A stretch of DNA of 64,000 nt from a virus (Duplodnaviria; Heunggongvirae; Uroviricota; Caudoviricetes), in IMG/VR virus record IMGVR_UViG_3300033153_011579. The stretch is one strand, 5' to 3'. Shown piece by piece: positions 1 to 44,218 of the stretch. A model generated the notes under the pieces. It worked only from the letters and a program-made list of their open reading frames with translations, had not been told where the DNA came from and did not search any database. The position numbers were made by a program, and so were the translations under genes. The stretch's first letter is position 1. Every line of letters begins with the position of its first letter.

Positions 1-90
1 TCGCGGCGAGGGAGATGGAGCTCGAGCGCATCCGAGATCATTTATACAAGAACAGGGTCGAGGATTTCATCAGGGACGCCAATGGCGACT
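1..90 (+). CDS. 3' end of an upstream gene (partial; ...MELERIRDHLYKNRVEDFIRDANGD*)
   Basis: Frame 3 is open from the window edge to TGA at 88-90 and overlaps the next ATG (ATGgcgacTGA). Confidence 0.3.
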
Positions 91-1139: not shown

Positions 1140-1172
1140 GAGAGTGATGAATTCTCTGACACGGAGGGGACG

Positions 1173-1730
1173 ATGAAGGTCGATATTCCAGACAACGTGA
1201 TCGAAAATCTCGTCGACGAAAAGGTCAAACAGAAAATGCGGGAGGTCGGATTCGATCTCGTAAAGTCTCTGAAAGGCTGGTTAGACCAGATCGACACTGT
1301 TGGTGAACTGTCTGCCTGGTCTACGGTGACTTACTATTTCATAGATACTTATCATCGGTTTTTCGAATTGCGGTGGGGGGAGTTTGAGCTGGATGGGCAA
1401 GCCGTCCCTCCTAAAACAGAAGTTGTCTTCGATGCTGGTTTAGACTCTGACGGTTTCGGCTTGGTCAAGCTATCGTCCGGTGAGTATGGATATTCTCAAT
1501 GTGAAAAACCGTGGATTCGTGTGAAGCCGACCGTTCACCGTTACGGCCCCGAAGAGAACCAGGTCGTCCTTGAGTATGACGAGCCGTGGTGTGATGGCAA
1601 GTGCCGGGTTCGCGTCGAAGACGGTGAACATATAACCCTCTGGCAGGAAGAAGAATTTAAAAAAGACTCAGAGGAGTTTGATGAGCTACGACAGGCCTGG
1701 GAGTCGATCATGAAACCGCCGGAAAAGTGA
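1173..1730 (+). CDS. hypothetical protein (185 aa)
   Basis: Junction element 1141-1169, then ATG; long ORF with GC3 bias. Confidence 0.6.
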   Translation: MKVDIPDNVIENLVDEKVKQKMREVGFDLVKSLKGWLDQIDTVGELSAWSTVTYYFIDTYHRFFELRWGEFELDGQAVPPKTEVVFDAGLDSDGFGLVKLSSGEYGYSQCEKPWIRVKPTVHRYGPEENQVVLEYDEPWCDGKCRVRVEDGEHITLWQEEEFKKDSEEFDELRQAWESIMKPPEK

Positions 1731-1732
1731 CT

Positions 1733-1767
1733 GTAAGGGAATGCGCAATTCTCTGACACGGAGGAGC
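1733..1767 (+). promoter_or_regulatory. junction element copy (GTAAGGGAATgcgcAATTCTCTGACACGGAGGAG)
   Basis: 7-bp inverted repeat flanking a 4-nt loop, then GACACGGAGGAG, then ATG at 1770. Confidence 0.8.
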
Positions 1768-1769
1768 GG

Positions 1770-2021
1770 ATGAGCTACGGAAGAACACCATACTACATCC
1801 TCAACATGATCAATTCGGACTGTGTTCACTTCTGGTGTGAGCTCGGAGAGGTTCTCGTGCCACAGCGCGCTGTCGACCAGTTTTGTGTCGTCCGCGTGCT
1901 GAACCCAGACGAGCTCATCCATGCTTTTCGCTGGTTCGAGGAACAGCGCCCGGACTGGGAGGACCTCCGCGAAGACTTTGTGGCAGCGCTCCGCAAAATA
2001 GCAGACGAGATAGAACGGTAA
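1770..2021 (+). CDS. hypothetical protein (83 aa)
   Basis: Element then ATG; the stop TAA is the TAA of the next element. Confidence 0.55.
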   Translation: MSYGRTPYYILNMINSDCVHFWCELGEVLVPQRAVDQFCVVRVLNPDELIHAFRWFEEQRPDWEDLREDFVAALRKIADEIER

Positions 2022-2050
2022 GGGAATGCGGAATTCTCTGACACGGAGGA
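2018..2050 (+). promoter_or_regulatory. junction element copy
   Basis: GTAAGGGAATgcggAATTCTCTGACACGGAGGAG, with ATG at 2055. Confidence 0.8.
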
Positions 2051-2054
2051 GACG

Positions 2055-2465
2055 ATGAACAAAGCAACCAAGGCACTCAAGACTCTCCGGGCTGTAAGTC
2101 GACCAGGTAGCCCGACGCGCCAGGCTGCCGTTCTAGGGTTGGCTGAAATTGAGAGGCTACGAAAGCAACGTGACGAAGCTCGACGTGACCACGCTGTTCC
2201 GGGGATGTACGCTCTCGGCTACGCGCTGTTCTACTTCCAGTTCAGTAACCGCGATCACGACTATGGAGATCAGGTCGGCCGCGTCCACGCTCTCTGTGAG
2301 CGCTGGGTGGATCTCCGGGCACGAGAGCACGCCGCGATGCTACAGGAGTTCGACCTCAACGAAGATCCAGACGACAAGAAGTGGGAAGCCTTCCTGCAGG
2401 GGTGGGCTCCAGAGTGGGACAAGCTCCTGGAAGACATCGACGACGAGTGCGAGAACCTGTGCTGA
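2055..2465 (+). CDS. hypothetical protein (136 aa)
   Basis: Element then ATG. Confidence 0.55.
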   Translation: MNKATKALKTLRAVSRPGSPTRQAAVLGLAEIERLRKQRDEARRDHAVPGMYALGYALFYFQFSNRDHDYGDQVGRVHALCERWVDLRAREHAAMLQEFDLNEDPDDKKWEAFLQGWAPEWDKLLEDIDDECENLC

Positions 2466-2508
2466 GGGGCTGTAAGAGAATGCGGATTTTTCTGACACGG
2501 AGGAGTTG

Positions 2509-2712
2509 ATGGAGTATTTCTCGACACTGTTTAACATCATGCTCGGCGCGCTCGGTATCTTGGGACTCCTTGTTGGAGGGGGGATCTTTATTGTGGGCAT
2601 CGCGGCGACTATAGTGGAGGAAAAGGCTAGATTCTTGTTGCTGTGCCCGATTGGATTTTTGGCCGGGTGCAGCGGATTAGCCTGGTTCGTCACGGTGGTG
2701 AAGTATCTGTAA
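2509..2712 (+). CDS. small membrane protein (67 aa, two hydrophobic helices)
   Basis: Element 2472-2505; hydrophobic sequence LGALGILGLLVGGGIFIVGIAATIV. Confidence 0.5.
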   Translation: MEYFSTLFNIMLGALGILGLLVGGGIFIVGIAATIVEEKARFLLLCPIGFLAGCSGLAWFVTVVKYL

Positions 2713-2745
2713 GAGAATGTAGAGTTCTCTGACGAGGAGCGGATT

Positions 2746-3075
2746 ATGACTGTCGAAGAAACAAGCGAAGAGCTGGCGCTGGAGGGACGATCGGTGGTCA
2801 TCGAGGTGACCCGCTTTCCCAAGGGCACATCCCGCGGCCGGGTGACATCGCTCGCCGTCGGCATCGACCCCGAGGTGAAGGAGGGGGACGAGGCCGTCGA
2901 TGTGTCTCCCGCCCTCGTGGTCGACGCGCTGATCTACGCCCTGAAGCTGAACTACGACGCTGAGAGCCAGCACGGATCGGACGAGACCGCCGAGGAGTAC
3001 GTCGAGGACGTGGCGCGGATCCTGCTGTCGCAGATCGAGAACGATGAGCCGAGCTCGCTCAGGAGGGTCCACTGA
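2746..3075 (+). CDS. hypothetical protein, duplicated-gene copy A (109 aa)
   Basis: Element 2709-2739; ~90% identical to the ORF at 5952-6282. Confidence 0.6.
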   Translation: MTVEETSEELALEGRSVVIEVTRFPKGTSRGRVTSLAVGIDPEVKEGDEAVDVSPALVVDALIYALKLNYDAESQHGSDETAEEYVEDVARILLSQIENDEPSSLRRVH

Positions 3076-3085
3076 CACGGAGAAG
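2752..3085 (+). repeat. ~335-bp direct repeat, copy A (pairs with 5958-6292, >90% nt identity by eye)
   Basis: Near-identical nucleotide strings that include the trailing CACTGACACGGAG partial element. Confidence 0.8.
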
Positions 3086-3088
3086 AAA

Positions 3089-3280
3089 ATGACTATGCTG
3101 ACCGCCTATATCGTTCTGGGGGTGCTCGTGCTGGGAGCTATCGGTACCGGTATCTGGGCCAAGCTCACTGGTGATCCGGTCCCTGTGATTCTTTGCGCCC
3201 TACTGATCGCGGCGGCGGCGGCGCTGTTGAACATCCCGTCGAGCAGGTTCGCCAAGTCCAAGAAGGAGCTCGACCGATGA
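3089..3280 (+). CDS. small membrane protein (63 aa)
   Basis: Partial element, then ATG; two hydrophobic segments. Confidence 0.45.
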   Translation: MTMLTAYIVLGVLVLGAIGTGIWAKLTGDPVPVILCALLIAAAAALLNIPSSRFAKSKKELDR

Positions 3281-3519
3281 AAAGATTCAAACTTCACCAG
3301 CGAGTCCGCGTGACCGAGGGCGAGCTCGTCGGCCGATTCGGAGCCGTCTGGCGGTGTCGTCGAGCCGATGATGCGGCATGGATCGCGATGGACGAAGACA
3401 TCCCGGAGTCGCTGCGACAGTTTCCAGCAAACGACGCACACGGCCGCGGTAACCACGTGATCCTCTGGCCGGACCAATGCGAGAGGATCACCAAAGCGCC
3501 GAAGCTGAAGGCTGTGTGA
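3277..3519 (+). CDS. hypothetical protein (80 aa)
   Basis: ATGA overlap with the preceding stop. Confidence 0.45.
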   Translation: MKRFKLHQRVRVTEGELVGRFGAVWRCRRADDAAWIAMDEDIPESLRQFPANDAHGRGNHVILWPDQCERITKAPKLKAV

Positions 3520-3851
3520 TGATTCGAAACGGCGACAAACCAGGTGAGCGACGGTTAGCTCTTCCGATCCACTTCCGTGGGCCGACCAGGTGCCTCGGGG
3601 TGGAGGGGACCGTCGATGACGACTACAACGTGGTTCCAGTAGGTCGAGCTCGAGCTTGCGTGCTGAAGGACCTCTGCATCCGCTATCGGGACCGAGAAGA
3701 CTATGGACCGGCGACCCCCTGGTACTCCGAGTGTCCTTACGACTGGCAACGGATGATCTGTACGGAATATCAAACTTCGTGGAGAAATCGAGGGCCGGTG
3801 ATGGACCGTTTGGTAGACATCTACGCCGCGATGCCAGCGAGGGAGAAGTAG
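3519..3851 (+). CDS. hypothetical protein (110 aa, Cys-containing)
   Basis: TGATG overlap; GC3 bias. Confidence 0.45.
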   Translation: MIRNGDKPGERRLALPIHFRGPTRCLGVEGTVDDDYNVVPVGRARACVLKDLCIRYRDREDYGPATPWYSECPYDWQRMICTEYQTSWRNRGPVMDRLVDIYAAMPAREK

Positions 3852-3853
3852 TC

Positions 3854-4339
3854 TTGGTTGAAATCACACACGACCGCCTCGTGAAAGCTGCAGCTATCTG
3901 GCTCGGCCAGAAGCATCGAGTGGTCTCCACCGAGCTCGTCTGCAGTACCGTCTCAGAGAACGCCGATGCTATCGGATGGGACGGTTACGGCAGGTGCATG
4001 GTCATCGAGTGCAAGGTCAGCCGCTCAGATTTTCTCGCCAACAAGCACAAACCACACGAGATCGTCGGTGACTCCATGGGGAACGAGCGCTGGTTCATGA
4101 CACCACCTGGTCTTGTCGAGCCAAAGGAGTTGCCGCGCAGCCACGGGCTCCTCGAGTACACGCCCAGTGGCCACGGGTCCGGCTACTTCATCCGCAAGGT
4201 CAAGAAAGCTCGGCCGCGGAAGAGGACGGTCGACCGGCTTTGGAACGAGAACCGAACACTGGTCGCCATCGCAGGCCGTGCTCTCGAGGCCGCTTCGAGG
4301 CTCAAGCCGCTCTGGCTCGGTGACGGCGAGGACGAGTAA
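3854..4339 (+). CDS. PD-(D/E)XK nuclease-like protein (start uncertain; TTG at 3854 follows a GGGAGAAG RBS; the ORF frame is open from 3656)
   Basis: Motif GWDGYGRCMVIECKVSRSDF has D...(V/I)ExK spacing typical of the PD-(D/E)XK fold; it ends DE* directly into an element. Confidence 0.45.
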   Translation: MVEITHDRLVKAAAIWLGQKHRVVSTELVCSTVSENADAIGWDGYGRCMVIECKVSRSDFLANKHKPHEIVGDSMGNERWFMTPPGLVEPKELPRSHGLLEYTPSGHGSGYFIRKVKKARPRKRTVDRLWNENRTLVAIAGRALEAASRLKPLWLGDGEDE

Positions 4340-4369
4340 GAGAATGCCGGATTCTATGACACGGAGGAG
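4336..4369 (+). promoter_or_regulatory. junction element copy (variant with ATG inside the right arm: ATTCTATGACACGGAGGAG)
   Basis: Sequence at this position. Confidence 0.75.
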
Positions 4370-4374
4370 TGAAG

Positions 4375-4581
4375 ATGGGCGTGCGAACAAAAAAGTTGGC
4401 TGAATGGAAACACGCTGCCATCGAGGCGTTCTACCGACTAGATAGCCTCGTCAATGACAGCGAGTGTGACAACGCAGAGGAACCATACTCCGATTGGCAG
4501 CCGTGCGAGGATGGGTGCAACTACTGTGACGATCGCGAGGCGAGGGACAGGATCGCCCAGCTCATGGCCAAGGACCAATAG
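4375..4581 (+). CDS. hypothetical protein (68 aa, Cys-rich C-terminus)
   Basis: Element, then ATG 7 nt after GGAGGAG. Confidence 0.5.
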   Translation: MGVRTKKLAEWKHAAIEAFYRLDSLVNDSECDNAEEPYSDWQPCEDGCNYCDDREARDRIAQLMAKDQ

Positions 4582-4588
4582 GCTGTAA

Positions 4589-4744
4589 GAGAGTGATAGA
4601 TTCTCTGACACGGAGGATAAGTGGATCGACGGCAAGTACAAGGAATCCGGCATGGACATCGATGGCAACCTCGACCGCGAAGTTGCGATCTTCCACCTGA
4701 CCGGTAAGGGGCGGGAGGCCGCGAAAAGCGATGAGGAAAAATGA
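4589..4744 (+). CDS. small ORF with unresolved start (coding frame ...KWIDGKYKESGMDIDGNLDREVAIFHLTGKGREAAKSDEEK*)
   Basis: The GC3-rich frame after element 4585-4617 has no ATG/GTG/TTG before the ATG at 4649; the GTG at 4621 sits in an AT3-rich frame. Confidence 0.3.
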   Translation, partial: ESDRFSDTEDKWIDGKYKESGMDIDGNLDREVAIFHLTGKGREAAKSDEEK

Positions 4745-4845
4745 AAGAGACAATTGTCGAAATCATGTTTGGGTATCTGTATTTTGCGTTGGGTGGGGGT
4801 GCCGTCGCCTATGTGTGGTGGATGAGTAGCACTTTTGGAGGATGA
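4741..4845 (+). CDS. membrane peptide (34 aa)
   Basis: ATGA overlap; hydrophobic FGYLYFALGGGAVAYVWW. Confidence 0.35.
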   Translation: MKETIVEIMFGYLYFALGGGAVAYVWWMSSTFGG

Positions 4846-4846
4846 G

Positions 4847-5050
4847 ATGGACAACCCCGACCTGTACTGCGTGAAGTGCTCGATCGGACTTGGCTTCGGT
4901 CCGCGCGCAACCATCGACAAGAAGGATTACTGCAACGGCTGCGCTGTCTACTTGCTACGCGCCCGCGTGGCCGAACTAGAATCTCAACCGGCGCAGACGA
5001 TGCCTGTCAAACGCACCGTGCGCGAGGCGGTGAACGATGATGTTGATTAG
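4847..5050 (+). CDS. Zn-ribbon-like small protein (67 aa; CVKC...CNGC; paralog of 6817-7152)
   Basis: Shares CxxC...C...RARVAELE(S/A)Q with the ORF at 6817. Confidence 0.5.
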   Translation: MDNPDLYCVKCSIGLGFGPRATIDKKDYCNGCAVYLLRARVAELESQPAQTMPVKRTVREAVNDDVD

Positions 5051-5339
5051 AGCAATCGGCAGCTCCCTGCTCGCAGTGGCGAGCATGACTATCCGTTGGA
5101 TTGCGGCCGACCTTCTAAGGAGTAAAGGAAAACACATGAGATCAACAACAATAGAAAAGATGTGTCAGGCAGCATCGGTACTCGACCGGGAGAAGTTTGA
5201 TGCTCTCGCCGAAGACCTTTTCGACGAACTGGCGGCTTCTACGACTCGGATGTCAGCAGCTATTCACAATTCGTACTGTCCGAAGTGCCTCGAAAAACAA
5301 CTCATAATCGACGACCTGCGGATCGTCGATCCTGACTGA
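5037..5339 (+). CDS. hypothetical protein (100 aa; alternative start at ATG 5138)
   Basis: ORF ending at TGA 5337-5339, immediately followed by a family-2 hairpin. Confidence 0.4.
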   Translation: MMLIRAIGSSLLAVASMTIRWIAADLLRSKGKHMRSTTIEKMCQAASVLDREKFDALAEDLFDELAASTTRMSAAIHNSYCPKCLEKQLIIDDLRIVDPD

Positions 5340-5341
5340 TG

Positions 5342-5359
5342 AGGAATGACACGTTCCTT
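5342..5359 (+). promoter_or_regulatory. family-2 hairpin (AGGAATGACACGTTCCTT)
   Basis: Inverted repeat GGAA/TTCC around TGACACG, directly after a stop codon. Confidence 0.6.
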
Positions 5360-5418
5360 ACGAAGAAAACGAATTTTGTAAGAGAACCCCAAGATTCTCT
5401 GACATGGAGGAGATAGTG

Positions 5419-5682
5419 ATGTTCGACGATTGGTCAACTTGGCAACTAGTACTGACCGGTGTCTTCTACTTTTTTCTGTGTATGCTGATCGGATTTCTTG
5501 CCACAGCCGTCCCAGCCTGGGTGCAGCTGTGGAGGGTCAAACAAGAATGTCGGAGTCGGGTAGCTCAAGCCAATCGAAGGTTTGATCTGTCTACTCGTGA
5601 TTTGTGTAAGAGAATGTCGGTTTCTCTGACACGGAGAAGAGAATGGGAACGGAAAAAGATCAAGACAACGTCAGGCACCTGA
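5419..5682 (+). CDS. small membrane protein (87 aa; 3' end reads through the next element and overlaps the next gene)
   Basis: Element 5378-5410; hydrophobic LVLTGVFYFFLCMLIGFLATAV. Confidence 0.4.
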   Translation: MFDDWSTWQLVLTGVFYFFLCMLIGFLATAVPAWVQLWRVKQECRSRVAQANRRFDLSTRDLCKRMSVSLTRRREWERKKIKTTSGT

Positions 5683-5945: not shown

Positions 5946-5951
5946 GGACAA

Positions 5952-6282
5952 GATGGCTGTTGAGGAAACAACTGAAGAGCTGGCCCTGGAGGGACGCTCG
6001 GTGGTCATCGAGGTGACCCGCTTTCCCAAGGGCACATCCCGCGGCCGGGTGACATCGCTAGCCGTCGGCATCGAGCCCGACGTGAAGAATGGGGGCGACC
6101 CCGTCGATGTGTCTCCGGCCCTCGTGGTCGACGCGCTGATCTACGCCCTGAAGCTGAACTACGACGCCGAGAGCCAGCACGGGTCAAACGAGACGGCCGA
6201 GGACTACGTCGAGGACGTGGCGCGGATCCTGCTGTCGCAGATCGAGAACGACGAGCCGAGCTCGCTCATGCGGGTTCACTGA
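5952..6282 (+). CDS. hypothetical protein, duplicated-gene copy B (109 aa)
   Basis: ~90% aa identity to 2746-3075; own RBS GAGGACAAG; no full element upstream. Confidence 0.6.
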
Positions 6283-6292
6283 CACGGAGGGG
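5958..6292 (+). repeat. ~335-bp direct repeat, copy B
   Basis: See copy A. Confidence 0.8.
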
Positions 6293-6295
6293 AAG

Positions 6296-6493
6296 ATGAG
6301 CCTGTTTTTTACGACGACAATTCGCGAGGATGTTGAGATCGAGGTCGATGTGGAGTGCTCGAGGTGTGGAGCCGCTCTCACGGCAACATCCAGAAGCGAA
6401 CACATCGGCTCCCACGATGAAAACCACCGGCTGGTGATCCACCCGTGCACCACCTGCTACCCGGTTGGCGCGACGGATACCGAGAGCTCGTAA
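6296..6493 (+). CDS. Zn-ribbon-like small protein (65 aa; CSRCG...CTTC)
   Basis: Partial element CACTGACACGGAGGGG, then ATG. Confidence 0.5.
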   Translation: MSLFFTTTIREDVEIEVDVECSRCGAALTATSRSEHIGSHDENHRLVIHPCTTCYPVGATDTESS

Positions 6494-6529
6494 GAGAATG
6501 TGCGTTTCTCTGACACGGAGGAGTGGCAA

Positions 6530-6802: not shown

Positions 6803-6816
6803 CGACCTGTAAGAGA

Positions 6817-7152
6817 ATGGAGCGTTCTATGACAGAGAAAGAGATCAAGCCGAAGATGGTGGATGGCGAGGCGGTGTGTTCTAAAAACTGTCCGCGTTAT
6901 GGGATTGAGCCATGCATGGGGCTTGTTGATTTATCCTCATGCGCCCCCTACTACCGCGCCCGTGTCGCCGAGCTCGAGGCACAGATTTCAAGAATCAGCG
7001 ATACGATCTACCGGGGTGCTCCGCTGTCGTGGGCAAAGGCTGAATTTCACGAGGTCGTGAGCGCCTGGGAGCTGGATCTCTGTATCGCTCTGAACTTATG
7101 CGGCTTCCGCGACGCCCTTGAGCATATTAAGGCGAAGAAAGATTCAGAGTAA
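6817..7152 (+). CDS. Zn-ribbon-like protein (111 aa; alternative start at 6829 inside the element)
   Basis: Degenerate element with ATG embedded (TTCTATGACAGAG); paralog of 4847. Confidence 0.5.
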   Translation: MERSMTEKEIKPKMVDGEAVCSKNCPRYGIEPCMGLVDLSSCAPYYRARVAELEAQISRISDTIYRGAPLSWAKAEFHEVVSAWELDLCIALNLCGFRDALEHIKAKKDSE

Positions 7153-7180
7153 GAGAATTTTACGTTCTCTGACACGGAGA
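7149..7180 (+). promoter_or_regulatory. junction element copy
   Basis: GTAAGAGAATtttacgTTCTCTGACACGGAGAA. Confidence 0.8.
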
Positions 7181-7185
7181 AAAAG

Positions 7186-7674: not shown

Positions 7675-7712
7675 GCTTGTAAGAGAATTTTGCATTCTCT
7701 GACACGGAGAAG

Positions 7713-8054: not shown

Positions 8055-8376
8055 GCCAGAAGAAGACTTTGGTCTCGTGGTCGAACTTCACGGCCCGCGC
8101 GTGATTCATCGGTGCCGAGACTGTGATCACAGGTTCGGGTCTCCGCCCAGGCATTGGCAATGTAAGGCGCACCCGCGTCACCTGGAAAACCCAGAATATG
8201 CTCTTCATTTGGTCGGAAGAGAGTTGGATGAAAGCGAGCTCACAGACGGATATGGGTTTTGTGACCTCATCCGTGTGGCGACACAGCCGACGTGTCCTGA
8301 GTTCGAGCCGCGTAGACCGGCGAGTGCTGGATTTGTGTCTTGGTGGAGAAGGCTGTTGGCGAAGTTCGGTCTGTAA
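8047..8376 (+). CDS. hypothetical protein (109 aa; CRDCDH...CKAH)
   Basis: ATGAATAA overlap with the preceding stop. Confidence 0.5.
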   Translation: MNKPEEDFGLVVELHGPRVIHRCRDCDHRFGSPPRHWQCKAHPRHLENPEYALHLVGRELDESELTDGYGFCDLIRVATQPTCPEFEPRRPASAGFVSWWRRLLAKFGL

Positions 8377-8410
8377 GAGAATTTATGATTCTCTGACACG
8401 AGATGGGTAG

Positions 8411-8650
8411 ATGAAGAAGCGAGCAAAACGAGTCGAAAGATTCCATGTGAGGTGTCCCTTTTGTGGCGATCTCGTGGACATCATGACGTCGCTCTCTTGG
8501 TGCTCTGGGTGTTTTGTCGAGTGGTACCGTACACGAGCTTGCAATTACATTTTTGATACCGAGAGGAAGACCGAGAGGTTCGTGTGGGCCAAGGCGGTGC
8601 AGAAGTCCGGAGGCATGCGGATCGCCTCAGCCAACGAGGACGATGAGTAA
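8411..8650 (+). CDS. Zn-ribbon-like protein (79 aa; CPFCG...CSGC)
   Basis: Element 8373-8405 (SD weakened to GACACGAGATGGG). Confidence 0.5.
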   Translation: MKKRAKRVERFHVRCPFCGDLVDIMTSLSWCSGCFVEWYRTRACNYIFDTERKTERFVWAKAVQKSGGMRIASANEDDE

Positions 8651-8679
8651 GAGAATTCAGGATTCTCTGACACGGAGGA
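8647..8679 (+). promoter_or_regulatory. junction element copy
   Basis: GTAAGAGAATtcaggATTCTCTGACACGGAGGATG. Confidence 0.8.
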
Positions 8680-8683
8680 TGAG

Positions 8684-9052
8684 ATGTGGAACAGAGTAAT
8701 ATTCGCGGGCTGGATGGTAGTCGCGTTGCTGATCGGGGTCCTATTCGGCGCAGGCCTCTACCAAACCTGGCCGGCTAATCCCGACGTGATCGAGGACACC
8801 GAACCCTCAAGCGGTCGGCCCCTAGAGATCGAGATCTGCTCAGACGCGGCTGACCACTGCAACGATTCGGAGGACTGCGTAGAGGACGTATTCTCGCGGT
8901 GTCTTTACCACCTCGGGACGCCAACAATGTCCGACTGTCACGAAGAGTGCGCAGGGATCATGAAGGAGCTAAGCGACAAGAACGATGCGTGCTGGGATAG
9001 CTTCATGAACTGCCAAGACGTACTCGACGAGGTGTGGCGAGAAGCGCTGTAA
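8684..9052 (+). CDS. membrane-anchored acidic Cys-rich protein (122 aa; paralog of the minus-strand ORF 32459-32836)
   Basis: N-terminal TM segment then Cys-rich ectodomain; the C-terminus HEECAGIMKELSDKNDACWDSFMNC resembles CREECAEIVRDLSRANDDLWERWLAC. Confidence 0.55.
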   Translation: MWNRVIFAGWMVVALLIGVLFGAGLYQTWPANPDVIEDTEPSSGRPLEIEICSDAADHCNDSEDCVEDVFSRCLYHLGTPTMSDCHEECAGIMKELSDKNDACWDSFMNCQDVLDEVWREAL

Positions 9053-9091
9053 GAGAATTGAGAATTCTCTGACACGGAAAAGAGGAACTCA

Positions 9092-9349
9092 GTGACTGAC
9101 GACATCATCCAGATTCGAACCGCGCCAGGATGCCGCAAGGAAAAGCCGATGCGGTATCTGGTGTTCCGCATCGAGTGCTACTACCCAGCGGGTGGGTGGG
9201 ACGACCTCGAAGCGACGACCAACGACAAGGAAACCGCAATCGAACTGGCCAAGAAAATTGAGGCTGAATTCAGCAGCGGCGAGGTGATTGACCTCGATAC
9301 TGGGACTCGCCTTTACCCGCCGTGGCGCGGTGACGACGAGGACGAGTAA
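9092..9349 (+). CDS. hypothetical protein (85 aa; GTG start)
   Basis: Element 9049-9085; ends DE*TAA into the next element. Confidence 0.5.
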   Translation: MTDDIIQIRTAPGCRKEKPMRYLVFRIECYYPAGGWDDLEATTNDKETAIELAKKIEAEFSSGEVIDLDTGTRLYPPWRGDDEDE

Positions 9350-9378
9350 GAGAATTGGCGATTCTCTGACACGGAGAG
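9346..9378 (+). promoter_or_regulatory. junction element copy
   Basis: GTAAGAGAATtggcgATTCTCTGACACGGAGAGG. Confidence 0.8.
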
Positions 9379-9382
9379 GAAG

Positions 9383-9634
9383 ATGACCAGGCTCGAACAG
9401 TACCAAAAACTCCACGAGATCTTCCTCGTGAACAGGTTTTCGGACGTGTTGACCGAGGCTGAAGAAGACGACCTGCTCTACGCCCTGGACGCCGTTTGGT
9501 GGCAGATGACGAGTGCGGAGCACGCCGAAGCGGAGAAGGACACCTGGATGTGGAATCGGGTGCTGCGGGGATGGTTCGCGCACATCGATCCCGCTGGCGG
9601 AACGAACAACCCAGTGATGAAGTGGAGCTTGTAA
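9383..9634 (+). CDS. hypothetical protein (83 aa)
   Basis: Element, then ATG. Confidence 0.5.
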   Translation: MTRLEQYQKLHEIFLVNRFSDVLTEAEEDDLLYALDAVWWQMTSAEHAEAEKDTWMWNRVLRGWFAHIDPAGGTNNPVMKWSL

Positions 9635-9669
9635 GAGAACTGACAATTCCCTTACACGAGGAGGAGAGG

Positions 9670-9945
9670 ATGAGGCGGAATCGCAGAACAATGGTGGCCA
9701 CAAGCACGATAGGTTCGTGGATGAGCCGAGTGTATAGACTGGAAGCTGAGAACGAAAAGCTTCGTACTGATCTTCTCTTCGCCAAAGCAAAGATTAAGGC
9801 GATCCGGGTACGTATTGAGATGGTCGATGATGGGGAGAGCTGTTACCAGTCACACGACGCGGTACCAGACATTCTCAACATTCTGCGTGGGGGGACGCTT
9901 TGGACAGGAAGTCCACAGTACGCCGCCGTCAAAAAACGCCTGTAA
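9670..9945 (+). CDS. hypothetical protein (91 aa, coiled-coil-like N-terminus)
   Basis: Degenerate element 9631-9666, then ATG. Confidence 0.5.
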   Translation: MRRNRRTMVATSTIGSWMSRVYRLEAENEKLRTDLLFAKAKIKAIRVRIEMVDDGESCYQSHDAVPDILNILRGGTLWTGSPQYAAVKKRL

Positions 9946-9982
9946 GAGAACCGACTGACTCTATTACACGAGGAGATAATAG

Positions 9983-10465
9983 ATGCACGGGCTAGGAAGA
10001 AGAGGAAACCGCCGGAAGAAACGCCTGAAGAAACATCGAGGCCGTACTCCTGCTAGAGTTTCGGCATCCAGCAAGGTCTACAACACTACCTCCAGGACCG
10101 TCGTCAAGACTGCTGCGCCCAGCACCGTCGTCACGTTCGACGACGTAGCTGATCTGGCCGAGGCGACCCTCGACGAGGAGAACGTGACCGCGCTGTTCAT
10201 GCGGTACGACAATAACATCAGGCCAACGCTCTTCTACACTGCCTACGCGGAAACTCCGTCTGGGCGCGTCTTCCTCCAGGCAGTCCATGTACTGTCGAAA
10301 GATGAGATCTACGAGAACCCAAAACACCCGCTGCCCTGTTACAGGGACGGCAAGGACATGAGGTGCCCCTATCCGCAGGAGCACATCATCGACAGGGCCG
10401 TTGAGTACTGGGAGTCCCGAGGGATTGACGTCTACGAGGGCACGGTGGAGATGAAGATTTTGTAA
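9983..10465 (+). CDS. hypothetical protein (160 aa, basic N-terminus)
   Basis: Degenerate element 9942-9974. Confidence 0.55.
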   Translation: MHGLGRRGNRRKKRLKKHRGRTPARVSASSKVYNTTSRTVVKTAAPSTVVTFDDVADLAEATLDEENVTALFMRYDNNIRPTLFYTAYAETPSGRVFLQAVHVLSKDEIYENPKHPLPCYRDGKDMRCPYPQEHIIDRAVEYWESRGIDVYEGTVEMKIL

Positions 10466-10499
10466 GAGAACCTTCTATTCCCTGACATGGAGGATTGAG

Positions 10500-10733
10500 A
10501 TGAAAACGGGAGAACGCGAACTGTTCAAGGTAACCGGACGACCTGGTCGCCGTATCTGGCGCAAACAAGCCGGAGCGCGAGGGTACCGACCCATCTGGAC
10601 CTCCGACTACGTTGAGGAGGTTGACGGGAAGTTCTTCTGCACGATTCGGAGTGAGTCCGAGAACGACCTGCCGATGGAGCAGCACGATAACCTTCAAGAC
10701 GCGCTCGAGTGGTTGATGAGGGATCGGACGTAA
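10500..10733 (+). CDS. hypothetical protein (77 aa)
   Basis: Element 10462-10495. Confidence 0.5.
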   Translation: MKTGERELFKVTGRPGRRIWRKQAGARGYRPIWTSDYVEEVDGKFFCTIRSESENDLPMEQHDNLQDALEWLMRDRT

Positions 10734-10762
10734 GAGAATCAACGATTCTCTGACATGGAGGA
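10730..10762 (+). promoter_or_regulatory. junction element copy
   Basis: GTAAGAGAATcaacgATTCTCTGACATGGAGGAC. Confidence 0.8.
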
Positions 10763-10766
10763 CAGG

Positions 10767-10961
10767 ATGAAACGCACGCTGTTGACCGAGATCGACTTTG
10801 ACCGTCAGAGCTGTCGGGTCATCGAGGCGGAGATCATCAAGTGCAACACCTGTAAGGGTAGCGGTTGGAAAGAGGTTTCGACGCACCGCGGAAACTACAG
10901 ACGCCGCTGTGCTCAGTGCCACGGCACAGGCAAGGTGCTGGTGGGACCGAAGGTTCGATGA
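10767..10961 (+). CDS. DnaJ-type zinc-finger-like mini-protein (64 aa; CNTCKGSG ... CAQCHGTG)
   Basis: Two CxxCxGxG repeats. Confidence 0.45.
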   Translation: MKRTLLTEIDFDRQSCRVIEAEIIKCNTCKGSGWKEVSTHRGNYRRRCAQCHGTGKVLVGPKVR

Positions 10962-11002
10962 CTGTAAGAGAACAGACGATTCTCTGACACGAGGAGAGAA
11001 GG

Positions 11003-11254
11003 ATGAATTTCAGTAACGAGCAAATGACAGAGTGGCTGTCGGAGGTTCCGGAAGCTACCAGCGTACGCTGCGTGGCTATCCCTCCGTACATCAGTAAAGA
11101 GATGAAGGAGCGGCCAGTGATTCCGTGGGATCTGCTTACCCGAGAAGTCAACAACAAGATAGGTGATGGTGACCGCGTACTCGGGATTCGTGCTGCGGGG
11201 GCCAACTCCTACGGCAATTACTGGATCATCATTTGGGTTGGCAACAAAGAGTGA
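11003..11254 (+). CDS. hypothetical protein (83 aa)
   Basis: Element 10964-10996. Confidence 0.5.
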   Translation: MNFSNEQMTEWLSEVPEATSVRCVAIPPYISKEMKERPVIPWDLLTREVNNKIGDGDRVLGIRAAGANSYGNYWIIIWVGNKE

Positions 11255-11293
11255 GCTTGTAAGAGAAACTAATATTCTCTGACGGAGGAGAGC

Positions 11294-11527
11294 ATGGACA
11301 ACGATACCAAAAGACTGTGTGGCAACTGCTTCTGGTTTGATCAAGAGCTCTGTCGACGACTGCCACCGCGCATGATTGACCAGGTAGATCTTTATGAAAA
11401 AGATAGTGAGTTCAACACCTGGAATGCCAGTTACGCAGACGACTACACCTCTTGGCCAGTTGTAGAAGAGAAAGCCTGGTGCGGAGAATGGCGATCGAAG
11501 GAAGACGGCTGGCCCGTCGGTAAGTAA
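11294..11527 (+). CDS. Cys-containing hypothetical protein (77 aa)
   Basis: Element 11259-11290. Confidence 0.5.
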   Translation: MDNDTKRLCGNCFWFDQELCRRLPPRMIDQVDLYEKDSEFNTWNASYADDYTSWPVVEEKAWCGEWRSKEDGWPVGK

Positions 11528-11559
11528 GAGAATCAAACATTCTCTGACACGAGGAGAAG

Positions 11560-11673
11560 ATGATGGAAATTCTAATTTTTTGGCTGTGCTTTTGTGGACT
11601 CGGAGCCGTTGGTATATTGGTAGCGTCCTTGGTGATCCTCAGTGAGGAACGTCAACGAAACGGTCGCCAGTAA
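11560..11673 (+). CDS. membrane peptide (37 aa)
   Basis: Element 11524-11556; hydrophobic ILIFWLCFCGLGAVGILVASLVIL. Confidence 0.35.
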   Translation: MMEILIFWLCFCGLGAVGILVASLVILSEERQRNGRQ

Positions 11674-11714
11674 GAGAATCAGCACGTTCCCTGAAAGGAA
11701 GATTGGAGAACAAA

Positions 11715-11927
11715 ATGTCGAAGAACACGGTCACGCAGCACGTTTTGGTTGATTCCCATGTTGAGTGCTTCCCTGAGGAATTCCTCGAAGCACTTCTCGC
11801 AGTTTGTCCGGCTCCCTTGGCACCGGACAGTCTTAAACAACTCCGTGACATAGGGAGAGTCCAGTTGAGCCTCTGGCTTTCCCCGGAGGACTTGAAGCGC
11901 TGGACAGGTAAAGCGCCAGGGGAATGA
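11715..11927 (+). CDS. hypothetical protein (70 aa)
   Basis: Hybrid element 11670-11700; the stop TGA lies inside a family-2 hairpin. Confidence 0.45.
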   Translation: MSKNTVTQHVLVDSHVECFPEEFLEALLAVCPAPLAPDSLKQLRDIGRVQLSLWLSPEDLKRWTGKAPGE

Positions 11928-11936
11928 CACTTTCCC
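11919..11936 (+). promoter_or_regulatory. family-2 hairpin (GGGAATGACACTTTCCC) containing the stop codon
   Basis: Sequence at this position. Confidence 0.6.
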
Positions 11937-11976
11937 TGTGCCTACACAACAACCGCCTAGTGGGGCAAGGAGTAGG

Positions 11977-12330
11977 ATGATGACAGAGCATACATTGACC
12001 GTTGGTGGAAGCGAGGTCGTGGTTTCGAGTAACCCTGTTTCAAGGGACCTTGTCGGCTCGGACCGCAGCTTCGGAGATGAACGCGCGCACCCATGTCCGA
12101 ACTGTAGCAAAAATAGTCTGCGCTACCATTTCCTCGACTACAGGCCTGCGCTGTCGTGGGCCTGCGTCGAGTGTGGCTATGCTGAGCACCCGCCGATTGA
12201 AAAGTTGGTTGCCGATGGGTACTCCCCGCAGAAGGTAGAGGAGGATTGGTCGACCTGCATTTACCCAAAGGAGTGGATGCTTTACTCCCCGCTTGAGCGG
12301 TTAGCGTCACCACAAACACGAAAGGATTAG
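11977..12330 (+). CDS. Zn-ribbon-like protein (117 aa; CPNC...CVEC)
   Basis: RBS AAGGAG; GC3 bias. Confidence 0.45.
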   Translation: MMTEHTLTVGGSEVVVSSNPVSRDLVGSDRSFGDERAHPCPNCSKNSLRYHFLDYRPALSWACVECGYAEHPPIEKLVADGYSPQKVEEDWSTCIYPKEWMLYSPLERLASPQTRKD

Positions 12331-12334
12331 AACG

Positions 12335-12685
12335 ATGGGTTTGTTTTCACCACCAGGCCAAGCTCCAGATCTCCGAGAGGCGAAAGATGTTAGAGTTATC
12401 GTCACCCTATGCAAGGACGAAGAACCAGGTGATGGATATGTCCGAACACAGATAACCGCTCTCGATGAACTCGAGGAGGGTGAAGAGGGTTTAAATATTA
12501 ACGGAGACAACGTCTTTGAGGCACTGGTTTACGCGCTGTACCACCACTTTGTAAACGAGCACGAGGTTGGGCATTCTTGTTGCCTTACTCATTTTATCGA
12601 AGAGATCACAGACCTACTGGAGCGTGTCAACGAGACTGACGGAAACGAAAAGGTCAGTCGGAGTTCTGAAGAACACACACATTAA
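12335..12685 (+). CDS. hypothetical acidic protein (116 aa)
   Basis: ORF with GC3 bias. Confidence 0.5.
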   Translation: MGLFSPPGQAPDLREAKDVRVIVTLCKDEEPGDGYVRTQITALDELEEGEEGLNINGDNVFEALVYALYHHFVNEHEVGHSCCLTHFIEEITDLLERVNETDGNEKVSRSSEEHTH

Positions 12686-12725
12686 TAAGGGTTATTGCAT
12701 CAGCTGCGGACCGTCGACCCTGTAT

Positions 12726-12746
12726 GAGGAATGACACGTTCCCTGG
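12726..12746 (+). promoter_or_regulatory. family-2 hairpin (GAGGAATGACACGTTCCCTGG) in a ~285-bp gene-poor stretch
   Basis: Sequence at this position. Confidence 0.55.
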
Positions 12747-12971
12747 TGGGAGAACGTCGAACTGGAGTGAGAGGAGTTTGAATGTTTAAAGCACGTCGAG
12801 TTCTCCGAGCGCGCGGTGAGTGTGGACGGGGGCCTGCGTTGGGTTTTTGTGACGAATTCTCCTTAGCAGGCCTTCTACGTGGAGTGCTTCAACCATTCCA
12901 TCGACCTACTCGACCCACTCACCGCGCGCTCGGAGAACTCGACGGCACGCAGTCGGGGGAAGGAGAAAAGA

Positions 12972-13181
12972 ATGCGAAAATATCGATTTCAGCACGATGA
13001 GGATGGTGACGTGCTGTGGGTCTACATCGCCGGTAACTCCGCGTACCCAGGGGAGCACCGCTTCGATCCACCAGAAGTTTTGGAGGCCTACATCGGTTAC
13101 CTTCGAGCATGTAAAGGTGATCAACTTGATTCTGATGTAGTTATCGCCTGGAAGGACAGTGCTTGGGGTCCGGATGTCTGA
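12972..13181 (+). CDS. hypothetical protein (69 aa)
   Basis: RBS GGAAGGAGAAAAG; the overlapping ORF 12782-13000 has weak GC3 bias and is less likely. Confidence 0.45.
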   Translation: MRKYRFQHDEDGDVLWVYIAGNSAYPGEHRFDPPEVLEAYIGYLRACKGDQLDSDVVIAWKDSAWGPDV

Positions 13182-13196
13182 TGACACGTTCCCTGG
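13180..13196 (+). promoter_or_regulatory. family-2 hairpin variant overlapping the stop (TGATGACACGTTCCCTGG)
   Basis: Sequence at this position. Confidence 0.5.
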
Positions 13197-13232
13197 TACC
13201 CCTATGCCCAAACACTAGGCAGGAGGAATGAG

Positions 13233-13412
13233 ATGTCTGAAAAGAAAGCTGTGGTTCAACGTGTTGTCATCCACGAACTCTTGGATGCAGGTGTGGTGGC
13301 GATCGAAGGACGTGATCTTGTGTTCGAGTCCCCCTGGGACAAGGGCTCAGAGGCGATGATTGCTTTGATGAAGAAAGGCCTCGTCAAAGACGTGGTCCGG
13401 GACAGGGAATGA
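13233..13412 (+). CDS. hypothetical protein (59 aa)
   Basis: RBS AGGAGGAA; the stop TGA lies inside family-2 hairpin 13405-13423. Confidence 0.4.
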   Translation: MSEKKAVVQRVVIHELLDAGVVAIEGRDLVFESPWDKGSEAMIALMKKGLVKDVVRDRE

Positions 13413-13437
13413 CACGTCCCCTGAAAGGAGAAGCCCG

Positions 13438-13713
13438 ATGGGTCAAACAACATCCGACAATCCAGGTGGAGTGAAGTCGCTCTTCGAAGATAACAACTCA
13501 CAAAAAGCTACTGCCTCCACGCTCGCCGGATACCTCGTCGAAGATGGTGCTTGGATGGTATTGCCAGATGGGGACCGCGAGATCACTATTGTGCGGCACA
13601 GAGACTATGGCACGATCATGTATCTCATTGATGGTCCAGGCGAGGATATAAGAAGCGGCGTAGTAAAAACGGTGCGAGAACTCGCTGACGCCATCGCCGT
13701 TGGTGGGGAATGA
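13438..13713 (+). CDS. hypothetical protein (91 aa)
   Basis: Hairpin + AAAGGAGAAG RBS; the stop TGA lies inside family-2 hairpin 13706-13723. Confidence 0.5.
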   Translation: MGQTTSDNPGGVKSLFEDNNSQKATASTLAGYLVEDGAWMVLPDGDREITIVRHRDYGTIMYLIDGPGEDIRSGVVKTVRELADAIAVGGE

Positions 13714-13737
13714 CACGTTCCCTAGGAACTTGAGCTT

Positions 13738-13770
13738 GTAAGAGAATCTCGCATTCTCTGACACGGAGGA
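13738..13770 (+). promoter_or_regulatory. junction element copy immediately downstream of a family-2 hairpin
   Basis: GTAAGAGAATctcgcATTCTCTGACACGGAGGAA. Confidence 0.8.
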
Positions 13771-13774
13771 AAAA

Positions 13775-13954
13775 ATGGACGAACACATGAGATATTTAGG
13801 CTGCCTGAAACTACTTGAGGATTGCTCACCTTACGTACCGGAAGAGATTCGTGAGGGTATCGAGATGGCTCACGACGATGCTGTAGAGGCCAGCAACGGG
13901 ACCTTGCGGGCTCGCAGTGTGCTCGATCGACGAGAGATCGAGGTGGTGACGTAA
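13775..13954 (+). CDS. hypothetical protein (59 aa)
   Basis: Element, then ATG; the stop is the TAA of the next element. Confidence 0.4.
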   Translation: MDEHMRYLGCLKLLEDCSPYVPEEIREGIEMAHDDAVEASNGTLRARSVLDRREIEVVT

Positions 13955-13985
13955 GAGAATCCGCACGTTCTCTTACACGGAGGAA

Positions 13986-14189
13986 ATGATGGGTAAAGAT
14001 GTGAGGACCAAGACATTCGCTATGATGTTTCGGGAGCGCTGCGTGATCATGCGGGATGCTTTCGACCGCCGTGACGTAGAGGGCTTTGCTACTGCTCTCA
14101 AGGACGTTGAGCGCCTGATGCGAGAGCACGCCGAGGGGTGCGGCTGCTCACAATGCCGAGAGACGCTGAAGATCATGAATGAGGTGTAA
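13986..14189 (+). CDS. hypothetical protein (67 aa; C-terminal CGCSQC)
   Basis: Element 13951-13983. Confidence 0.5.
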   Translation: MMGKDVRTKTFAMMFRERCVIMRDAFDRRDVEGFATALKDVERLMREHAEGCGCSQCRETLKIMNEV

Positions 14190-14223
14190 GAGAATACACA
14201 CGTCCTTTAACACGGAGGAAACG

Positions 14224-14460
14224 ATGAGTACTGTTCTGGATAATGACCAAAAATTGATGGTAATTCTGGCGGTTGTGGTGGCACTCTTCCTGTTAATTTT
14301 GGCTGGTGGGAAGCTTATTGGTGATGTTTTGTCACCCCCAACACCCCAAGAGGACTGTATGAACCAGGCCCAGCAGCTGGACAGCGAGGAGTCTGAGAAA
14401 GAAGCCTACTACAAGTGTCTTGAGTCTTTAGGGCTGGAAGATCCTAAAAAGGCTTTGTAA
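14224..14460 (+). CDS. small membrane protein (78 aa)
   Basis: Element 14186-14218; TM segment MVILAVVVALFLLILAGG. Confidence 0.5.
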   Translation: MSTVLDNDQKLMVILAVVVALFLLILAGGKLIGDVLSPPTPQEDCMNQAQQLDSEESEKEAYYKCLESLGLEDPKKAL

Positions 14461-14492
14461 GAGAATCTTCCGTTCTCTGACACGGAGAAGAA

Positions 14493-44154: not shown

Positions 44155-44218
44155 GCCCCGCAAAACCCGTTAGGTCGATCGCTGAAAAGCACGCCTGACA
44201 CAGAGGAGAAAACAAGCC

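Follow-up and report, generated by a model that had tools for sequence, protein, structure and literature searches.

A stop-palindrome-ribosome-site linker repeated through the early gene array of an uncultivated tailed phage

The window analyzed here is the whole 64-kb stretch (64,000 nucleotides) of IMG/VR virus record IMGVR_UViG_3300033153_011579, and it belongs to an 82-kb metagenomic contig of a very divergent tailed phage (Caudoviricetes). At its left end, a gene for a tyrosine recombinase (Int1) is followed by an array of small genes, many of which are separated by an element of about 34 nt that consists of a stop codon, an inverted repeat and a Shine-Dalgarno sequence (SD). This element, called the linker below, is the subject of this report. 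Its consensus is (T)GTAAGAGAAT-N5/6-ATTCTCTGACACGGAGGAG.

The early gene array and its linker element

A simple gene chain gives about 47 small rightward open reading frames (ORFs) at 966-14492; a first-pass annotation of the sequence had recognized these small rightward genes and put their number at about 45. We found that the exact pattern AGAGAAT-N3-8-ATTCTCT occurs 8 times in the window and in none of 100 shuffles. A mismatch-tolerant scan with GTAAGAGAAT and ATTCTCTGACACGGAGGAG returned 26 copies; each is on the + strand, and together they span 1136 to 14490. We then used a covariance model whose seed was 34 aligned copies, 28 from the window and 6 from a related phage, L067. At E < 1e-6 the model recovered 29 full window copies. 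Every one is on the + strand, within 1132-14499, and the remaining 49.5 kb (14.5-64 kb) contains zero full copies; the model's minus-strand matches were echoes of the palindrome. Two tail-only sites, at 3072-3085 and 6279-6292, retain just CTGACACGGAG. The total of 31 agrees with the roughly 31 copies first reported, and the conservation is beyond chance. About six further junctions, overlooked in that earlier census, carry a variant (type-2) hairpin, RGGGAAT-GACAC-GTTCCCT, in which the upstream stop is a TGA within the loop. The copies and the genes that flank the array are as follows.

82..969, + strand: tyrosine recombinase Int1, catalytic residues present; backbone gene at the head of the array
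1136..1169, + strand: linker copy 1 (type 1); gene 966-1139 stops at its TAA (1137), and gene 1173-1730 is next
1733..1766, + strand: linker; arms AGGGAAT/ATTCTCT, those of the operon's promoter palindrome
2018..2051, + strand: linker; its TAA is the stop of gene 1770-2021
2472..2505, + strand: linker
2709..2742, + strand: linker, upstream of paralogue A (gene 2746-3075)
3072..3085, + strand: tail-only copy CTGACACGGAGAAG, without hairpin; its TGA is the stop of paralogue A
4336..4369, + strand: linker
4585..4618, + strand: linker
5341..5359, + strand: type-2 hairpin, GAGGAAT-GACAC-GTTCCTT
5378..5412, + strand: linker with a 6-nt loop
5606..5639, + strand: linker, read through by ORF 5419-5682 in the sole frame that the element leaves open
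6279..6292, + strand: tail-only copy CTGACACGGAGGGG, after paralogue B (gene 5953-6282)
6490..6523, + strand: linker
6809..6842 (model match 6805-6849), + strand: degenerate linker found by the covariance model, outside the seed alignment
7149..7182, + strand: linker
7679..7712, + strand: linker, perfect stem
8373..8406, + strand: linker, perfect stem, degenerate SD
8647..8680, + strand: linker, perfect stem
9049..9082, + strand: linker, perfect stem
9346..9379, + strand: linker, perfect stem
9631..9664, + strand: linker, loop TGACA, identical to the loop of L067 copy 11055; neighboring genes unrelated
9942..9976, + strand: degenerate linker
10462..10495, + strand: linker
10730..10763, + strand: linker, loop CAACG, identical to the loop of L067 copy 10411
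10964..10997, + strand: linker
11259..11292, + strand: linker
11524..11557, + strand: linker, perfect stem
11670..11704, + strand: intermediate copy with a type 1 left half, right arm GTTCCCT and tail GAAAGGAAG
11919..11937, + strand: type-2 hairpin, GGGGAAT-GACAC-TTTCCCT; gene 11703-11927 ends at the loop TGA
12726..12744, + strand: type-2 hairpin
13183..13194, + strand: partial type-2 hairpin, GACAC-GTTCCCT, left arm absent
13404..13422, + strand: type-2 hairpin, AGGGAAT-GACAC-GTCCCCT, then GAAAGGAG and ATG
13705..13723, + strand: type-2 hairpin; gene 13438-13713 ends at the loop TGA
13738..13771, + strand: linker, loop CTCGC; counterpart of L067 copy 11996 (loop CTCGCC)
13951..13985, + strand: linker, loop CCGCAC, identical to the loop of L067 copy 12288
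14186..14220, + strand: linker with a 6-nt loop and a weak stem
14457..14490, + strand: last linker, preceding backbone gene 14493-15164
15528..16487, + strand: Int2, a paralogue of Int1 without HxxR and catalytic Tyr ("dead" recombinase); backbone gene beyond the array

The ends of the linker are tied to the genes around it. Among the 26 copies analyzed first, 18 have a TAA (G-TAA-GAG) that ends the upstream ORF in frame, in line with the first-pass statement that this is often so. In most of the others the stop is a separate TGA or TAG 5-8 nt upstream, frequently in the form TGAGCTTGTAAG. A second frame is shut by the TGA of CTGACA, which is the real stop of the paralogues at 2746-3075 and 5953-6282. 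The start codon usually lies 10 nt past the first G of GGAGG. Its distance had been given as 5-7 nt; we found mostly 3 nt after GGAGGAG, and the lower figure of 5 nt holds when counted from the GGAGG core. ORF 5419-5682, which reads through one copy, overlaps the next gene by 40 nt and is either a real extension or a frameshifted gene.

The inverted repeat itself differs from its first description. The 7-bp stem was said to be perfect in most copies, which is too strong: it is fully Watson-Crick in 8 of 29, or in 16 of 29 counting G·U pairs. The inner 6 bp are paired in 22 of 29, and the most variable pair is the one adjoining the loop. Loops measure 5 nt (24 copies) or 6 nt (5 copies), where a range of 4-6 nt had been reported. 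The GACA "tail" had been taken as single-stranded, but it is complementary to TGT(A) before the left arm. This makes the whole repeat an imperfect palindrome of 11 bp, TGTAAGAGAAT-N5/6-ATTCTCTKACA, with C and the SD after it. Behind the A/U-rich stem comes GACACGGAGG and no U-tract, which does not fit the definition of an intrinsic terminator. Terminator-like sites in the 14-kb array are not above chance, and none coincides with a copy on the + strand. The first-pass judgment that the linker is not an intrinsic terminator therefore stands.

The leftward operon holds a second family of linkers, composed of a stop, a GCCGG-N6-CCGGC hairpin and AGAAAGAGAGCGGAAA directly before the ATG. The four copies are on the minus strand, at 18598-18630, 18862-18894, 19216-19248 and 19422-19454, and two of the four are identical. 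Among the genes that they precede is 17597-18598 (minus strand), which encodes a response-regulator receiver (REC) domain (Pfam E = 3.5e-15). Thus, the phage uses the stop-hairpin-purine-ATG architecture twice. A tail-only look-alike, CTGACACAGAGGAG, lies at 44195-44208, 10 nt before late-region gene 44219-44929, and may be due to chance.

Relatives of the phage and exchange of genes between linkers

Few relatives turned up in the searches. Integrase relatives number just 5-6 among 5.8 billion proteins, profile search included, and a protein search with Int2 returned only Int2 itself. Neither a megablast of window positions 1-15000 nor a tblastn of a 681-aa window protein matched any of 50,697 phage records. 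We recovered the identical upstream part of the window's own genome (L061, in which window position 1 is L061:5408) and four further phages with recombinases 58-62% identical: L064/65, L066, L067/68 (= L059) and L069/70. The L067 integrase is 58% identical to that of the window. Rfam at gathering thresholds gave no family in the window, and at E <= 1 it gave one weak, chance-level match: a Fluoride riboswitch at 11920-11984 (20.1 bits against a gathering threshold of 34, E = 0.09), which lies across a type-2 hairpin and is probably fortuitous. In IMG/VR, a 15-mer scan produced 57 single matches at chance level, none with the hairpin, and a 20-base gapped pattern of the element had zero matches there. 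The same pattern gave one chance match in 185,579 genomes (a cyanobacterial metagenome-assembled genome with no further copies) and, in the JGI metagenomes, one true relative, L059, which is part of L067, plus one chance match. The element itself appears undescribed, as the first-pass annotation had supposed; it has no match in Rfam, in sequenced phages or in the IMG/VR pattern search.

The arrays of these phages differ greatly in size. The stretch from the recombinase gene to the next backbone gene contains about 47 genes in the window, about 9 in L067, 6 in L069, 2 in L066 and 0 in L064. In L067, six linker copies occur in the interval from the recombinase gene to the homologue of window gene 14493-15164; a single weak copy was found in L064 and none in L066 or L069. 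The window and L067 resemble each other only in the recombinase, in one small gene that follows it, in the backbone genes past the array, and in the elements. In pairwise alignments, identity begins a few bases before TGTAAG and stops at the ATG, with unrelated sequence on both sides. Neighboring elements with loops CTCGC(C) and CCGCAC are common to both phages, with a different gene enclosed. Of the six L067 loops, three also occur in the window, letter for letter (expected 0.07, P = 6e-5). Loops are kept between window copies 9631, 10730, 13738 and 13951 and L067 copies 11055, 10411, 11996 and 12288, respectively. The first-pass annotation had suggested comparing gene order between relatives, and homology does start and stop at the element. 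Of the roles it had proposed, that of a recombination module boundary is the only one with direct support, as the L067 element variants are flanked by unrelated genes.

Homologues of window cassettes are found elsewhere along the backbone of the relatives: those of 2746/5953 and 5643 in L066, that of 9092 in L064 and that of 8047 in L067. The near-identical duplicated gene reported at 2746/5952 is real. The internal duplication spans 2746-3092 and 5953-6299 with 91.6% identity; the homology runs exactly from the ATG of the gene itself to the SD-ATG of the following one. The first loop base changes in blocks along the array, from G to T to C (9 runs, p < 5e-6). Thus, neighboring copies share ancestry.

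The explanation that we favor, with middling confidence, is that the element serves a hyperplastic early operon as a portable linker between its cistrons, acting as stop, ribosome site and recombination boundary. Each unit would end translation of one promoterless ORF and start that of the next. Because the unit supplies both stop and start signals, any ORF dropped between two units would be expressed. With about 40 bp of identity every ~450 bp, the units would be preferred crossover points, and crossovers there would account for the growth of the array to about 47 genes here versus 2-9 in the relatives. Several observations count against this explanation. Only two genomes carry a linker array. 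The small-gene arrays of L066 and L069 have been shuffled without any linker; thus, the linker is not required for shuffling. Furthermore, loops are the same between phages yet different between copies, which simple homologous exchange does not explain.

The array is bracketed by two recombinase paralogues. Int1 matches the PHROG integrase profile (E = 2e-11), and its best NCBIfam matches, XerA/integron-integrase and XerC, are far below cut-offs. Int2 (319 aa) is its paralogue by hhalign (96%, E = 4e-9, 242 columns) and lacks HxxR and the C-terminal tyrosine segment. The two genes bracket the variable array and are conserved in the four relatives read that far (the L067 Int2 is truncated by the contig end). 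As an active, Xer-like recombinase and its dead paralogue, they could form a phage-borne integron-like platform around the ~47 promoterless ORFs, in which the 27-bp palindromes would be Int1 sites with the dead Int2 as partner, and the palindromes and promoter copy would serve for recombination or binding. The sites have 10-bp arms and a 7-8-bp centre, which are dif-like dimensions and fit the core-site geometry of tyrosine recombinases, and cassettes would pass in and out by single-strand exchange. If this were true, host-takeover and anti-defence genes would be captured, reordered and silenced by site-specific exchange, not by chance homologous recombination.

Like an integron, the array has a tyrosine recombinase gene beside co-oriented, promoterless ORFs that are split by imperfect inverted repeats and, as consensus scans suggest, served by one promoter; the intact gene and its inactive paralogue stand on either side, and a copy of the inner repeat lies near the promoter. 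However, the centres of the sites vary in sequence and length, and this variation between copies would block classical strand exchange. The same element variant is found beside unrelated genes, so the element does not travel with the cassette as attC does: attC measures 57-141 bp, has R''/L'' and L'/R' boxes and is mobile together with its cassette, whereas the linker site is a single 27-bp palindrome that stays put. The sites here include the next gene's SD, and the boundaries of the duplication are at the ATG and SD, not at the palindrome centre. In addition, relatives retain Int1 and Int2 without an array of sites. Int1 would be co-transcribed with the array, and its scores stay below every integron-integrase and Xer model cut-off. 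We consider an integron-like system improbable.

The linker might also be a selfish miniature palindromic element (REP- or MITE-like) that spreads into intergenic gaps and is tolerated because it carries its own stop and SD. REP/BIME are bacterial imperfect palindromes of ~35 bp just after stops, with many copies and roles in mRNA stability. The linker resembles REP in size, in its imperfect palindrome, in its place after stop codons and in its GTA(A)G head, and its sub-lineages share loops, with neighbors alike in the blocks described above. However, REP elements are chromosome-wide, in both orientations and mobilized by RAYT (Y1 HUH). The linker occurs only at 1.1-14.5 kb, in one operon and on the + strand, with no target-site duplications, and no RAYT/IS200-type transposase family was matched among the early proteins. 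Its arms are conserved across very divergent phages, which better fits a function at the level of the phage. Selfish spread is highly unlikely.

The early promoter and the reading of the palindrome

The only good promoter that we detected, TTGACC-17-TATGAT, is at L061:4242-4270, 1.15 kb left of the window. It belongs to a regulatory region (L061:4107-4297, 1.1-1.3 kb left of window position 1) with at least four TTTCCCGTG boxes, one of which overlaps the promoter spacer next to the -10; a GTGTACACAATGTATACA element is also in the conserved region. The early promoter region is conserved in all five phages (the window's genome, L064, L066, L067 and L069). In L061 the 189-nt regulatory region adjoins a sigma-70-family gene. 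This gene (L061:3433-4107), just upstream of the early promoter, encodes a 224-aa protein with regions 2 and 4; none like it turned up in the recovered parts of the relatives' genomes. A leftward promoter, TTGACC-16-TATGAT, is at L061:3387-3360, and an AcrVA2-like protein is encoded next to the L067 early promoter (L067:5869-7059).

A promoter scan of window positions 1-17000 gave 4 sites versus 5.6 expected, which is not above chance. With a single upstream promoter and no internal promoters or terminators above chance in consensus scans, we infer that one long operon comprises the recombinase gene together with all the small ORFs. The promoter scan also rules out the junction copies as sigma-70 promoters with CTGACA as -35, in agreement with the first-pass view that the embedded TGACA could not serve as the -35 of the next gene. 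We found a -10-like hexamer at the right spacing in only one of the 31 copies, the tail-only copy at 3072.

The conserved sequence before each gene, together with the sigma-70-family protein encoded just upstream of the operon, could instead mean that each copy is a promoter for a phage-specific RNA polymerase or sigma factor, as in N4 or by way of the sigma factor of L061. We give this idea almost no credence. The longest window ORF is 722 aa, and no RNA polymerase family was matched among the scanned proteins. The variable centre would alter promoter spacing, the -10-like hexamer is missing from nearly all copies, and the resulting transcripts would be almost leaderless. Furthermore, L067 has the elements and no sigma gene was seen in its 13.8 kb. 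For an N4-type hairpin promoter specifically, which the first-pass annotation had proposed, we found no RNA polymerase family (~13 kb of the 82-kb contig being unseen), and the operon has its own conserved sigma-70-type promoter. That proposal is thus not upheld.

The promoter has a twin of the linker palindrome beside it. In five phages, CAGGGAAT-N4-6-ATTCCCT stands directly upstream of the -35, with ATTCTCT as the right arm in the window's own genome. Its inner repeat, AGRGAAT-N-ATTCYCT with centres of 4-6 nt, lies 1-3 nt upstream of the -35. The arms of the window's promoter copy recur unchanged in window copies 1733 and 2018. At the variable right-arm position, 26 of 29 window copies have T and 4 of 6 L067 copies have C, in agreement with the promoter copy of the respective genome (Fisher p = 0.0085). 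In the inner repeat the junction sites have the sequence of the putative operator at the early promoter, as stoperators do; the outer arms are not shared. Because the promoter copy is upstream of the -35 and is untranscribed from that promoter, it must act on DNA there or be a relic.

Copies differ in their centre, but the sequence of the arms is kept between phages with recombinases only 58% identical. That conservation, and the same 7-bp repeat abutting the -35, make the palindrome most likely the site of one sequence-specific factor. A single factor would then see the promoter and every junction, and if it is a DNA-binding protein it could bring about operon-wide shut-off or roadblocking like that of stoperators.

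Reading of the palindrome on DNA is slightly favored over reading on RNA. The promoter twin, the conserved arms with a free centre, the lack of a G·U bias and the arm variant that tracks the promoter all point to DNA. Operator- or stoperator-like recognition of DNA is thus a good possibility, if short of probable; a role as an RNA hairpin is nearly as likely, and the rest of the probability goes to both levels or to something else. Several points weigh against the reading by a DNA-binding factor. The strict position relative to stop codon and SD is what an RNA-level role predicts. The centre is 5-6 nt at junctions and 4-6 nt at promoters, which is awkward for a rigid dimeric DNA-binder and natural for a hairpin. 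The promoter copy shares the inner 7 bp only, without the outer TGTA/KACA. Scans with Pfam, PHROG and NCBIfam detected no repressor, helix-turn-helix (HTH) or RNA-binding family among 49 early/backbone proteins or among the leftward L061 genes, and no RNase, RNA polymerase or transposase family in either set. Finally, the AlphaFold model of Int2 was too poor (pLDDT 56) for a fold search. An inactive recombinase fold such as Int2 could plausibly read an inverted repeat with a 6-8-bp centre; Int2, or Int1 itself, is a speculative candidate for the palindrome-binding factor.

The hairpin could also be the whole point of the linker, forming in the polycistronic mRNA as a purely RNA-level element. 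It might be a 3' protective hairpin after endonucleolytic processing near GACAC, a 5' stabilizer with a strong SD, or a way to keep stop and SD close for termination-reinitiation; the promoter copy would be its evolutionary source or functionally unrelated. Phage early mRNA is known to be regulated at intergenic sites, as shown by the T7 RNase III sites and by T4 RegB/RegA (PMC3014915). Every linker copy is co-oriented with transcription and placed exactly from stop to SD at fixed spacing, the outer TGT/ACA lengthens the stem, and the second family in the leftward operon has the same layout. Loop length and sequence are free within the genome, yet 84% of the cells of the alignment pair, against at most 52% with the partner slid. 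However, base-pair covariation in the alignment of copies is no higher than in shuffles. There is no excess of G·U in the stems of the 29 copies, and among non-Watson-Crick cells A·C is about as frequent as G·U; the independent events are too few to decide between RNA and DNA. The scarcity of perfect stems and a mean predicted stem energy of only -5.6 kcal/mol also argue against a purely RNA-level element, as does the repeat conserved upstream of the -35, where it is untranscribed from that promoter.

Conservation falls on the stem sequence and not on the loop, and protein-bound RNA hairpins mostly have the reverse pattern. The stem is at most 11 bp, whereas a classical RNase III site needs a longer one; the linker thus lacks at least one defining feature of such a site. 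Nor does the hairpin help the ribosome in our predictions. The probability that the SD is unpaired is 0.41 in the native sequence and 0.51 when both arms are removed; thus, the hairpin exposes the SD no better than no element would. A purely RNA-level linker is rather doubtful. The first-pass suggestion of an RNA operator or processing site is neither borne out nor excluded, with no covariation, no G·U excess and no gain in SD accessibility.

The same predictions bear on an anti-SD switch, in which the right arm AUUCUCU has two possible partners: the left arm, which leaves the SD free, and GGAGGA, which closes the SD and leaves an ACA triloop. A ribosome that ends translation at the UAA in the left arm would flip the switch and so gate translation of the next gene. 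The alternative hairpin does appear in minimum-energy folds. Its mean predicted energy (right arm with SD) is -3.2 kcal/mol, the two hairpins are isoenergetic in ~10 copies, and removal of the left arm drops the probability of an unpaired SD to 0.26. However, this is promiscuous pyrimidine-purine pairing (87% versus 61-79% in slid controls) with no covariation. It is lost in 4-5 copies with CACGAGGAG and in 8 copies whose predicted energy is above -2 kcal/mol, and the second linker family does not preserve a comparable pairing. We rejected the switch, and its second-family analogue with it, as thermodynamically possible but neither specific nor conserved; it is very unlikely.

Comparison with known phage repeats and other observations

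In anatomy, the linker is closest to the SAS/ESAS of Cluster K mycobacteriophages (Pope et al. 2011, PMC3203893; 188-genome survey 2025, PMC12699233), whose function was still untested in 2025. Both are conserved, asymmetric SD-containing motifs a few bases before the starts of non-structural genes, nearly always in one orientation and sometimes with the upstream stop within the repeat. Both have imperfect inverted repeats with a variable spacer directly upstream of the SD and no compensatory changes, a likeness of architecture only; for ESAS, the lack of such changes led the authors to favor DNA-binding proteins (PMC3203893, PMC12699233). The sequences are unrelated, with GGGATAGGAGCCC and 17-bp repeats there versus GACACGGAGGAG and 7-11-bp arms here. 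At an analogous position, the linker tail GACACGGAGGAG does not match the SAS consensus GGGATAGGAGCCC (<=2 mismatches, 3-7 bp before starts). The spacer is 4-13 bp in ESAS and 5-6 nt in the linker. ESAS tends to stay with a gene family, whereas a linker copy here stands beside unrelated genes. A promoter-side twin, present here, is not reported for SAS/ESAS. The phage lineage also differs from Cluster K, given the megablast and tblastn results above.

In evolutionary role, the linker is closest to the promoter-early stem-loops (PeSLs) of T4-type phages, which are ~100 bp and provide each gene with a terminator and a functional sigma-70 promoter (Arbiol et al. 2010, PMC2839356; Comeau et al. 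2014, PMC4122927). The first-pass annotation had assigned PeSLs to lactococcal phages in error. Both are short conserved intergenic cassettes with a stem-loop that fill hyperplastic regions of small ORFans, and both mark the places where genes are inserted, deleted and replaced between relatives. In one PeSL subclass the stem-loop is just upstream of the -35, as at the promoter of this operon. However, the junction copies here have neither promoter nor terminator; they have a stop codon and an SD instead, and the genes would form one long operon.

Stoperators of Cluster A phages are a third point of comparison. There, the early-promoter operator is repeated ~20-30 times in short intergenic gaps, oriented with transcription, and one repressor at these sites silences the promoter and blocks elongation (PMC9283540, PMC6550527). 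As in that system, a putative promoter operator sequence is repeated here between genes near stops and starts. Stoperators are 13-14-bp asymmetric sites bound by a monomer, whereas the linker site is palindromic around a variable centre, occurs in one operon only and is fused to the SD. The conserved inverted repeats (CIRs) of Streptomyces phage phiC31 are grouped with stoperators as a similar system. The linker is a further member of the phage intergenic linker repeats, in an unrelated uncultivated lineage.

Phage early regions accumulate host-takeover and anti-defence ORFans. How genes are gained with expression kept is known for few model groups, namely from the PeSLs of T4-like phages and the still-unexplained SAS/ESAS of Cluster K. 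The promoterless linker, with its stop, palindrome and ribosome site, would be a third solution that works inside one long operon, and our comparison shows that linkers persist while the genes between them are exchanged. The promoter twin, the flanking recombinase paralogues and the loops kept between phages make a compact testable system for asking whether the palindrome is read on DNA or RNA and whether exchange is driven by an enzyme. The 34-nt unit is also a candidate adaptor for synthetic polycistronic operons.

The majority of window proteins had no family match in the Pfam, PHROG and NCBIfam scans, and a tRNA scan of the window found zero tRNAs. The recognizable genes, apart from the tyrosine recombinase at 82-969, are those for a PurZ-like adenylosuccinate synthetase, DUF5131, GP88 and a lectin-fold protein. 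Minus-strand gene 16484-17191, whose product has an Lcl C-terminal domain, contains a tandem 6- and 12-base repeat (GTGTCG/GTATCG) at 16889-17125. In L067, a ribosomal protein S12 homologue (MPTINQLVRKGRRK...) is encoded at L067:9849-10232, directly before the linker array. The best NCBIfam similarity of the REC-domain protein of gene 17597-18598 is to the myxobacterial EspA/EspC kinases, a faint hint at the host. The adenylosuccinate-synthetase-like gene at 26259-27368 (minus strand) matches the PurZ-type PHROG phrog_1211 (E = 1e-51), and its neighbor at 27365-28234 (minus strand) matches phrog_2971. The match to a PurZ-type PHROG suggests that the phage may replace adenine by 2-aminoadenine.

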